Positions 39,001-42,000 of a stretch of 64,000 nt of DNA are shown in pieces. Each line of letters starts with the position of its first letter. Position 1 is the stretch's first letter. Origin of the DNA: Escherichia coli (GTDB taxonomy: Bacteria; Pseudomonadota; Gammaproteobacteria; Enterobacterales; Enterobacteriaceae); assembly GCF_017348835.2 (NCBI RefSeq), contig NZ_CP071375.1, one strand, 5' to 3'. The position numbers are program-made.

Positions 39001-42000
39001 TGCAGCGAACTGCATATTGCCCCGTCAACGTATTACCATTGTCAGCAACAGCGACATCATCCGGATAAACGCAGTGCCCGTGCGCAGCACGATGACTGGC
39101 TGAAGAAAGAGATACAGCGCGTATACGATGAAAATCACCAGGTATACGGTGTGCGTAAAGTCTGGCGTCAGTTGTTACGGGAAGGTATCAGAGTGGCCAG
39201 ATGCACTGTGGCACGTCTCATGGCAGTTATGGGACTTGCCGGTGTTCTCCGGGGTAAAAAGGTCCGCACTACCGTCAGCCGGAAAGCCGTTGCCGCATGC
39301 GACCGCGTAAACCGTCAGTTCGTGGCAGAACGTCCAGACCAGTTGTGGGTGGCTGATTTTACCTGGGTAAGCACATGGCAGGGCTTCGTTTATGTGGCGT
39401 TCATCATTGATGTGTTCGCCGGATACATCGTGGGATGGCAGGTCTCATCATCCATGGAAACAACATTCGTGCTGGATGCACTGGAGCAGGCGTTGTGGGC
39501 CCGTCGGCCGTCCGGCACAATCCATCACAGTGATAAAGGTTCTCAGTATGTATCGCTGGCCTACACGCAGCGGCTTAAGGAAGCCGGATTACTGGCATCA
39601 ACAGGGAGTACTGGCGACTCGTATGACAACGCGATGGCGGAGAGCATCAATGGTCTTTACAAAGCGGAGGTAATACACCGTAAGAGCTGGAAAAACCGTG
39701 CAGAAGTGGAACTGGCCACACTCACGTGGGTGGACTGGTATAACAATCGACGATTGCTGGAAAGGCTGGGCCATACTCCCCCGGCAGAAGCAGAAAAAGC
39801 TTATTATGCTTCCATCGGAAACGATGATCTGGCAGCCTGAGTTCACAGATAAAACACTCTCCAGGAAACCCGGGGCGGTTCATGGCGTCATAGCAGACTG
39901 GCCGGTCAACCGGGTCAGCGAACTGCTTCCGTGGCGCATAGCACTGCCAGCTGAATAACACATCCCCGTCAATACGGCCCTCGCTGTACGCTTACGAAGT
40001 TAATACCGTTTTGTCTGTTTTTTTAACAAAGAAAATAATCCTGGAGTAGGTTCCCGGGCATTTGCCCGGGATGATTACTGTTTTAATGGATTATTAATCT
40101 TTGCATATTCAAATGGACTGATAAATCTTTCTCTGTTTGCATCCAGAAAATCGGCCCACCACTGTAGCATCAGTCGCCGTTCTTCCAGATGTTCTGCTTT
40201 ATGAATGTAAGCAGCACGTACACCGTTACGTTCCTGATGGCTCATCTGACGTTCAACTGCATCGCGGGACCACAAACCTGATTCTATTAACGCACTACAT
40301 GCCATCGCCCGGAATCCATGACCACAGACATCCTGGGTTGTGTCATACCCCATAACCCTCAGGGCTTTATTTACGGTGTTTTCACTGATTGGTTTACGTG
40401 GGTCATGTGCTCCCGTAAAGATCAGACCATTTTCACCAGCCCATGTCTGAAGTTCTGCCAGTATGGCTACAACCTGTTTGCTGAGTGGCACAAGATGTGG
40501 TGTTCGCATCTTGGATCCCCGGTGTGAGAATTTTACGCCTGGCAGAGGTTCGCGTTCGGCTGGAATAGTCCACATGGCATTGTCAATATCAATTTCAGAC
40601 CAGCGGGCGTATCTGAGTTCACTGGAACGAATAAAAACCAGTAAATTCAGCATAACGGCAAGCTGGGTGACAGGTTGCCCCTTGTAACTGCCAATACGCG
40701 ACAAAAGTTCAGGCAGGCGAGAAAGATCAAGAGCGGGGCGATGCTGGCGTTTTACCGTAGTCAATGCGCCAGCCATATCCAGAGCAGGATTATATCTGAT
40801 GATGCCAGACTGTACGGCATAACGCATTACGGCAGATATTCTTTGCTGCAGACGACTGGCGATTTCATAAATTTGTTTAGCTTCTGCAGCACGAACAGGG
40901 ATAAGCAGGTCCGGGGTATTGAGTGTTGTGATATCCCGATTGCCGATAAAGGGGAATACGTGTGTCTCGAGGCTTTTGAGTACTTTATCGCTGTGTGATT
41001 GTGCCCATTGTTTATTACTGGCATGCCAGCGTCGTGCAATATGTTCGAAAGAGAGTTGTAAATCAGGGACTACTTTTTTAGCTCTTTTCTGTTCGCAAGG
41101 GTCAACCCCCTCCGAAATCAGTTTTCGGGCCTCATCCCGTTTTGTACGAGCTTCGGAGAGAGATACTTCTGGATACACACCAAGTGCCAGAGTCTTCTCT
41201 TTACCCAGAATACGATAACGGAGACGCCAGTAACGGGAACCATTAGGATGTACCAGCAGGAACATGCCAGCCCCGTCAGTGAGTTTATAAGCCTTGTCAG
41301 TGGGCTTTGCAGCCCGGATTTTTGCGTCAGTCAGTGCCATAGTTCAGCCTTCTGAATGCGTTAAAGAGGGTACAAATTCTGTCGAACTGGGGTATGCCCG
41401 CAATTATACCCACACAATGAGGTTGATGTGGGGAGAATTTGGTTGAGTTCGGTAGAATTGATTTGGAGGAAGAACACTTAAATCATGGTGTTCTGAAACG
41501 AAAAACGGACCTCCGTGGAGGTCCGTTGATATGAATTTGGTGCCCGGACTCGGAATCGAACCAAGGACACGGGGATTTTCAATCCCCTGCTCTACCGACT
41601 GAGCTATCCGGGCAACGGGGCGCATTAAACCGTAATCTGCACATCTCGTCAACCTAATTTCAGTAAAAGCGATTCAACTGCTTAAGATTGCGGCAAATCG
41701 CTTCTTTTCTGTGTTTCTGTCAGGTCAATGCGCCACCCTGGCGGCAGCGGGCGAAGCGCAGGATATCTTCCGCCAGCCGATGTGCAGTGTCGACATCCGC
41801 CTGGCTACGATTCACCAGCATTCGGCTTAAACAGCCTTCCAGCACCAGTTCCATCTGCTTTGCTACCATCGCCGGATCGTCAACTTCCAGCGTGGTTAAC
41901 AGTTCGTGGGTGAAATCGTAAGCCGCGCTTTTTTGCTGATCGGCCAGTTGATGAATAGGGTGGCCAGGATCGGGATAAAACGTACAGGCAGCGATAAATA

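Follow-up and report, generated by a model that had tools for sequence, protein, structure and literature searches.

The stretch of DNA analysed here, called the window in the following, comprises 64,000 nucleotides of Escherichia coli (contig NZ_CP071375.1 of assembly GCF_017348835.2), and our subject is the junction in it where a gene for a P4-type integrase, int, stands beside the tRNA-Phe gene pheU (Table 1). ARAGORN finds a single tRNA in the whole window, tRNA-Phe(GAA), the Rfam tRNA model (RF00005) covers 41541-41613 with 68 bits, and the Rfam scan of 39900-41800 gave no RNA besides this one; in alignment the gene is intact and has the same sequence as pheU of strain K-12. Both genes lie on the minus strand, with the 5' end of int facing the 3' end of the tRNA over a spacer of 197 bp, so that int is transcribed away from the tRNA. 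The spacer contains a hairpin with two perfectly complementary arms of 11 nt. In these respects the locus is as described in an earlier account made from the sequence alone (the sequence-only reading), which had a P4-type integrase directed away from tRNA-Phe and separated from it by about 200 bp including a perfect hairpin. Leftwards from int there follow, in the PGAP annotation of the collinear genome of strain PE164, an element of the insertion sequence (IS) family IS3, ISEc8, a yee/CP4-like module and the core of the LEE (locus of enterocyte effacement), while rightwards from the tRNA there follow dicD (yjdC), dsbD, cutA, dcuA, aspA and groSL, in the same order as in K-12.

The integrase is of full length, as the sequence-only reading had also held. 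The open reading frame (ORF) encodes 421 residues and is identical to the one called by PGAP in PE164 (protein WP_001218841.1). Its Pfam domains are complete and above the cut-offs, being PF13356 Arm-DNA-bind_3 (residues 3-88), PF22022 Phage_int_M (98-192) and PF00589 Phage_integrase (222-383), and its matches in the PDB are to the N-terminal and central domains of CP4-like integrases. With Int of phage P4 it shares 54% identity over 97% of the query (E = 2e-151), and in the alignment with P4 Int and K-12 IntA the catalytic set R238, K277, H341, R344, H368 and Y378 falls in conserved columns at all six positions. Judged by its domains and by these alignments, int belongs to the P4/CP4-family tyrosine integrases.

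The boundary of the island was determined by using the pheU locus of K-12 as the reference empty site, in a three-way alignment with the window junction and with the junction on the cadC side in PE164 (NZ_CP114128.1). The latter, a porcine strain with an intimin-beta LEE, is the nearest complete genome found with a 25-kb query, and the window is collinear with its chromosome, with 4 single-nucleotide polymorphisms (SNPs) in about 46.5 kb compared. Where coordinates outside the window are given, L001 denotes the PE164 stretch including the left flank, L002 that of K-12 MG1655 and L008 the pheV locus of the O103:H2 strain 12009. From position 41538 rightwards the window aligns with the pheU-dicD region of K-12 with no rearrangement, in agreement with the expectation that core sequence resumes right of the tRNA. 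Left of the tRNA it is merely similar to K-12, from which it differs by substitutions here and there and by insertions of 12 and 22 bp, and leads into the full-length int. On the cadC side, PE164 is K-12-like through the 22-mer TGGTGCCGGACTCGGAATCGAA and then enters island DNA, whereas K-12 instead continues into the body of the tRNA; this distal junction leaves K-12 exactly 23 nt before the 3' end of the tRNA. The 22-mer equals the final 23 nt of the tRNA less one base in the CCC/GGG run. On these alignments the island boundary is placed at the 3' end of the tRNA, where the sequence-only reading had put the proximal attachment (att) site, with everything to the right of the att core being K-12-like.

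The distal copy of the repeat lies at L001 12753-12774, that is, 7,226-7,247 bp left of position 1 of the window, where it adjoins an integrase-remnant pseudogene, yjdQ, and then cadC. In strain F2_81 the distal junction is at the same distance as in PE164, and FORC 064 has the identical distal junction sequence. When up to 3 mismatches are tolerated, the tRNA 3' end has no further copy in the window, and at up to 4 errors the window together with 20 kb of left flank has only the two terminal copies. Thus the partner repeat lies beyond position 1, as had been supposed, and a search left of espG/rorf1, which the sequence-only reading had proposed, recovers it in the closest relatives; since only the two terminal copies turned up, there is no internal att site. 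Between the repeats are 48,763 bp (48.8 kb) with 41.7% GC, as compared with 50.7% GC in the core to the right, and within this att-bounded region the PGAP annotation of PE164 gives a complete LEE set, ler, esc/sep, tir, cesT, eae, espADB, espF and espG. Among 5,426 complete genomes the proximal junction occurs in 1300 and this exact distal junction in about 30. From all this we identify the interval with high confidence as the attL end of an integrative island of the P4/CP4 family, seated in pheU and carrying the LEE.

Table 1. Coordinates of the features at and around the junction of int and pheU. Positions are those of the window, except where L001 (the PE164 stretch with its left flank) is indicated.
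Feature	Position	Strand	Content or basis
Island portion inside the window	1..41537		LEE core (espG, ler ... espF), yee/CP4-like module, ISEc8 with inserted IS3-family element, int; PGAP annotation of collinear PE164
GC-rich palindrome TCCCGGGCAtttGCCCGGGA	40053..40072	n/a	Directly 3' of the int stop codon, read from sequence
int, P4/CP4-family tyrosine integrase, 421 aa	40075..41340	-	ORF, Pfam, alignment with P4 Int
Spacer, int-proximal att arm, 197 bp	41341..41537	-	Terminator, candidate arm-type sites, presumed int promoter and leader
Third candidate arm-type repeat, GAGGGTACAA, inverted, near the int start	41366..41375	+	P4 analogy
Two tandem candidate arm-type Int-binding repeats, GCGGGCATAC and GTGGGTATAA	41392..41413 (41392-41401, 41404-41413)	-	12-bp spacing, P4 analogy
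Predicted rho-independent terminator hairpin	41504..41527	-	Terminator scan; fold -18 kcal/mol, z = -3.9
pheU, tRNA-Phe(GAA)	41538..41613	-	ARAGORN; Rfam RF00005; K-12 alignment
Proximal att core (attL), last 23 nt of the tRNA, TTCGATTCCGAGTCCGGGCACCA	41538..41560	-	Alignment with K-12 and the distal junction
Probable crossover (overlap) GGCACCA	41538..41544	-	Longest block common to the pheU and pheV targets and the core of island type (with its 1-nt deletion)
Distal-end candidate arm repeats	L001 12826-12835, 12838-12847	-	51 bp from the core

The one-base deletion that distinguishes the distal copy, attR, from the tRNA is present at three independent junctions, namely at pheU of PE164, at pheU of Z1323CEC0010, where a different island is inserted, and at pheV of 2014C-4423, where the same island end is found. 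An attR of TTCGATTCCGAGTCCGG-CACCA has been published for many genomic islands (GI) of the GI-pheV group, including that of O103:H2 12009 (PMC11537424, Table 1), and 22-bp repeats with a one-base shift have been described at both pheU and pheV (PMC6174562). We take the deletion, on the strength of these junctions, to be a family-wide trait. At attL the full tRNA, with the full GGG, is followed by island-type sequence, at attR the deletion is kept and chromosomal sequence follows, and at pheV the chromosomal sequence starts directly after CACCA. From these three observations we infer, as the reading that most simply accounts for them, that the crossover falls within the terminal GGCACCA.

It is noted that the same integrase is also found at the other tRNA-Phe gene. 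At pheV of O103:H2 12009 (L008 583-2121) the integrase has the accession WP_001218841.1 as at pheU here, and the 291 bp from the tRNA to the start of int are identical at the two loci. Since both the protein and the 291-bp junction are the same at pheV of 12009, one integrase type evidently serves both pheU and pheV. The spacer with its hairpin is likewise 100% identical behind pheV in 12009, whereas the native hairpin of pheV, which can be seen at a pheV attR, is different. From this recurrence and this difference it follows that the island would supply its own terminator for the tRNA gene it invades. The hairpin, which folds to a 10-bp stem with a 4-nt loop (z = -3.9 versus shuffles), begins on the tRNA strand 10 nt past the CCA end and is followed by the T-run TTTTTCGTTT, and by this form and position it is predicted to be a canonical intrinsic terminator for pheU, carried by the island. 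One could think instead of a structure for recombination or integrase binding within the att site, as the hairpin sits within the att arm with the core on one side and the arm repeats on the other, and is strictly conserved between the island and its K-12 counterpart while the flanking bases vary. But the GC-rich stem, loop and T-run on the tRNA strand, together with the start so close behind the CCA end, are those of an intrinsic terminator, and at the same position native pheV has a different hairpin, as would be expected if any terminator suffices, so that we consider a purely recombinational role very improbable.

In K-12 the neighbourhood of pheU reads cadC, yjdQ, pheU, dicD. Comparison of the spacers gives about 94% identity over the tRNA-proximal 115 bp or so, with the K-12 sequence diverging further out and being without one 12-bp unit. 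The "empty" pheU site of K-12 is itself occupied, in that L002 2692-3051, between cadC and pheU, consists of the yjdQ fossil and a diverged island spacer, and the same sequence is present at L001 12396-12752; in the fossil spacer the same terminator hairpin recurs, and of the two tandem 12-bp arm units there is a single one. Directly downstream of pheU the fossil resembles the island end in the window, with a homologous spacer that contains this hairpin and a single arm repeat, and with a homologous int; it differs in that only a 3' fragment is left of int after deletion of most of the gene, that it is short of one 12-bp arm unit and that a distal repeat is absent. On this comparison the yjdQ region is read as the fossil of an older member of the island family, which in the island-bearing strains has been moved to the far end, and the pheU terminator of K-12 appears to derive from an ancient island.

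Both att arms contain short repeats that follow GnGGGyAyA and resemble the arm repeats of the P4 attP, of the TTGGGGGCATAT type, in sequence and position. In the P4 record a 20-bp core is annotated about 150 bp upstream of int, together with 12-bp G-rich arm repeats, namely an inverted one where int starts, a tandem pair in the stretch from int to the core, and a further tandem pair about 55-75 bp past the core. Exactly one 12-bp unit is absent from the K-12 fossil, and the motif is retained in a diverged island while other bases change. By analogy with P4 the repeats on the two arms are candidates for the arm-type sites of the integrase, a function that we infer from their arrangement.

The anatomy of the locus, the two junctions, the integrity of int and the use of both pheU and pheV are direct readings, and they can be put together in the following pathway. 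The circular form of the island would have an attP whose 22-nt core, copied imperfectly from the tRNA-Phe 3' end, is flanked on one side by the terminator, the arm-type repeats and int, and on the other side by two more arm repeats, with the junction expected to read ...CCGTTGATATGAATTTGGTGCC(C)GGACTCGGAATCGAATATGGTTG... The integrase would have joined this attP to pheU by recombination at the gene's 3' end, the exchange probably falling inside its terminal GGCACCA. As the outcome, pheU would be left intact and be followed by the island terminator and int, which is the junction seen in the window, and the island-type 22-nt copy would come to stand at the far end, 7.2 kb left of the window, beside the old downstream DNA, that is, the yjdQ fossil and cadC.

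Some results weigh against such an element or against its present activity. The distal junction was read in the close relatives PE164 and F2_81 rather than in the island's own genome. A simple sigma-70 scan upstream of int gave no promoter-like match. GnGGGyAyA, a motif defined post hoc, has 4 matches in the window versus 3.3 expected and is not enriched. A tblastn search of the island with P4 Vis and K-12 AlpA gave E = 0.27 as the best value and hence no excisionase homologue, at limited sensitivity, and the annotation of PE164 has no excisionase among the island genes. Immediately downstream of int are IS66-family and IS3-family elements. A synthetic attP junction, searched against the 5,426 complete genomes, gave no true attP or tandem junction, which is weak evidence as assemblies rarely record such forms; the long matches obtained with it are ordinary attR junctions, in which the yjdQ side mimics the int-proximal arm.

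With the intact integrase, both cores and both arms present, and the same int and arm found at two tRNA-Phe genes, excision, which the sequence-only reading had allowed for, is plausible, and a review cites the deletion of pathogenicity islands (PAIs), LEE PAIs among them, as well as the insertion of LEE PAIs at alternative isoacceptor tRNA-Phe loci (PMC7545054, citing Tauschek 2002). For present-day excision by Int we would nevertheless put the chance at roughly even or lower. A competing explanation is that the island is an immobilised relic, in which int and the att sites survive, the directionality factor and its neighbours have been replaced by IS elements, and the LEE is lost by homologous recombination. 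The missing match to Vis or AlpA and the absence of an annotated excisionase would be as expected from it, as would ISEc8 and the IS3-family element abutting int and the numerous pseudogenes in the flanking modules. The int gene also seems dispensable, being split by IS1203 in some O111 genomes (2013C-4361, 8E), where the insertion would immobilise the island. A 1085-bp direct repeat of 100% identity around the LEE core offers a RecA route, and attR is one base off attL, a mismatch between the repeats being said to lower the frequency of deletion (PMC11537424). By contrast, an intact integrase with one and the same protein sequence occurs in distant lineages and beside two different tRNA genes, and the 1-nt difference of attR is shared throughout the family and has evidently not prevented integration in the past. 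For some islands of the P4 family the integrase suffices for excision or a factor is provided in trans. The review cited above mentions cross-complementation between integrases only, not between directionality factors (PMC7545054). On balance we give the relic a chance that is close to even but slightly below it. At the other extreme, the island could be a live element, the intact integrase of which excises the whole 48.8-kb LEE unit via the 7-bp GGCACCA overlap with no excisionase encoded by the island, alone or with the factor of another P4-like element, while the island-borne tRNA terminator insulates int until induction; this full version we regard as unlikely.

Another explanation concerns the history of the unit. 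The 1085-bp repeat mentioned above comprises window positions 33294-34378 and L001 13941-15025, the latter being 5.0-6.1 kb left of position 1; it is a yee/CP4-like module (JAB, DUF987, cbeA and DUF5983 pseudogenes), and its copies bracket the entire LEE core. Homologous recombination across the two copies would delete the LEE and spare int and both att sites, and the duplication suggests a composite unit, with a LEE segment joined to a GI-phe backbone. It might then be that the integrase is not the LEE's own, that a GI-phe backbone with int, a yeeP-like GTPase and the yee module acquired the LEE separately, and that the junction in the window is the boundary of this backbone. Besides the perfect duplication of the module on either side of the LEE core, the case of O103:H2 12009 speaks for it, where the same integrase heads GI-pheV and an attR is reported before the LEE core, suggesting independent acquisition (PMC11537424), and so does the frequency of the proximal junction relative to that of the exact distal one. 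Against it, the stretch between the island's two ends has neither a further copy of the tRNA 3' end, at up to 4 errors, nor any match to the arm-repeat motif. We hold the composite origin as a tentative alternative, somewhat less probable than an even chance. In any case, the whole 48.8 kb is now one att-bounded unit, so that a composite origin would alter the history and not the identity of the junction, and our reading of it as the attL end of a LEE-carrying integrative island would stay the same.

The junction is already known as a type, in that it matches published LEE islands at pheU and pheV and published GI-phe islands, the att repeat has been published and the integrase is a common RefSeq protein. 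The LEE islands at pheU or pheV with a P4-like integrase, as in rabbit enteropathogenic E. coli (REPEC), O26, O103 and O111, share with the present one the intimin beta LEE core, int beside tRNA-Phe, the distal direct repeat of the tRNA 3' end, the flanking yee/CP4-like modules and the IS elements, and the proximal junction is 99.8% identical in the O26, O103 and O111 genomes. Compared with them, the present island is relatively small, has an extra IS3-family insertion by int that F2_81 and O26 do not have, and has a distal junction restricted to the 30 or so complete genomes mentioned above. The GI-pheV family of intP4 islands (PMC11537424) has likewise a P4-type int directly after the tRNA, the same attR deletion and a modular structure with yee modules, the difference being that the island in the window occupies the paralogous pheU and that the chromosomal side of its attR is the yjdQ fossil rather than native downstream DNA of pheV. 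With the satellite phage P4 it has in common the three integrase domains, a core from the tRNA 3' end 150-200 bp upstream of int and tandem 12-bp G-rich arm motifs (candidates here) at comparable distances on either side of the core. It differs from P4 in that the target is tRNA-Phe rather than tRNA-Leu (leuX), that no Vis homologue was detected in the island, that genes for P4 replication or helper exploitation are absent and that the cargo is a type III secretion island. The useful outcomes are therefore the precise attL coordinates, the location of attR and the recognition of the hairpin as an island-borne tRNA terminator. The junction fixes the ends of the LEE island in this lineage, where the integrase, attL and attR for site-specific movement are still present, and it bears on the gain and loss of the LEE in attaching-and-effacing E. 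coli; its value is in annotation, not in discovery.

Finally, we note several features around the junction. The IS3-family element, with orfA/orfB and a programmed frameshift, lies at about 38627-39960 between ISEc8 and int. In the near-identical F2_81 the stretch from the LEE to int is about 1.3 kb shorter, and ISEc8 directly abuts int in F2_81 and in O26 and O103 genomes, because of which the insertion beside int looks recent and lineage-specific. The palindrome next to the int stop codon could be a terminator of int or mark the border of the DNA that IS elements have replaced. Within the LEE, espF is annotated in PE164 as a frameshifted pseudogene (about 31974-32588 in the window); diverged tandem repeats lie in this region (32195-32447 versus 32336-32588, 85% identical), presumably proline-rich repeat modules, and one of the SNPs between the window and PE164, at 31943, is close to the gene. 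In the core chromosome right of the island there is an inverted repeat of about 120 bp with 83% identity, at 52161-52281 and 53466-53587.

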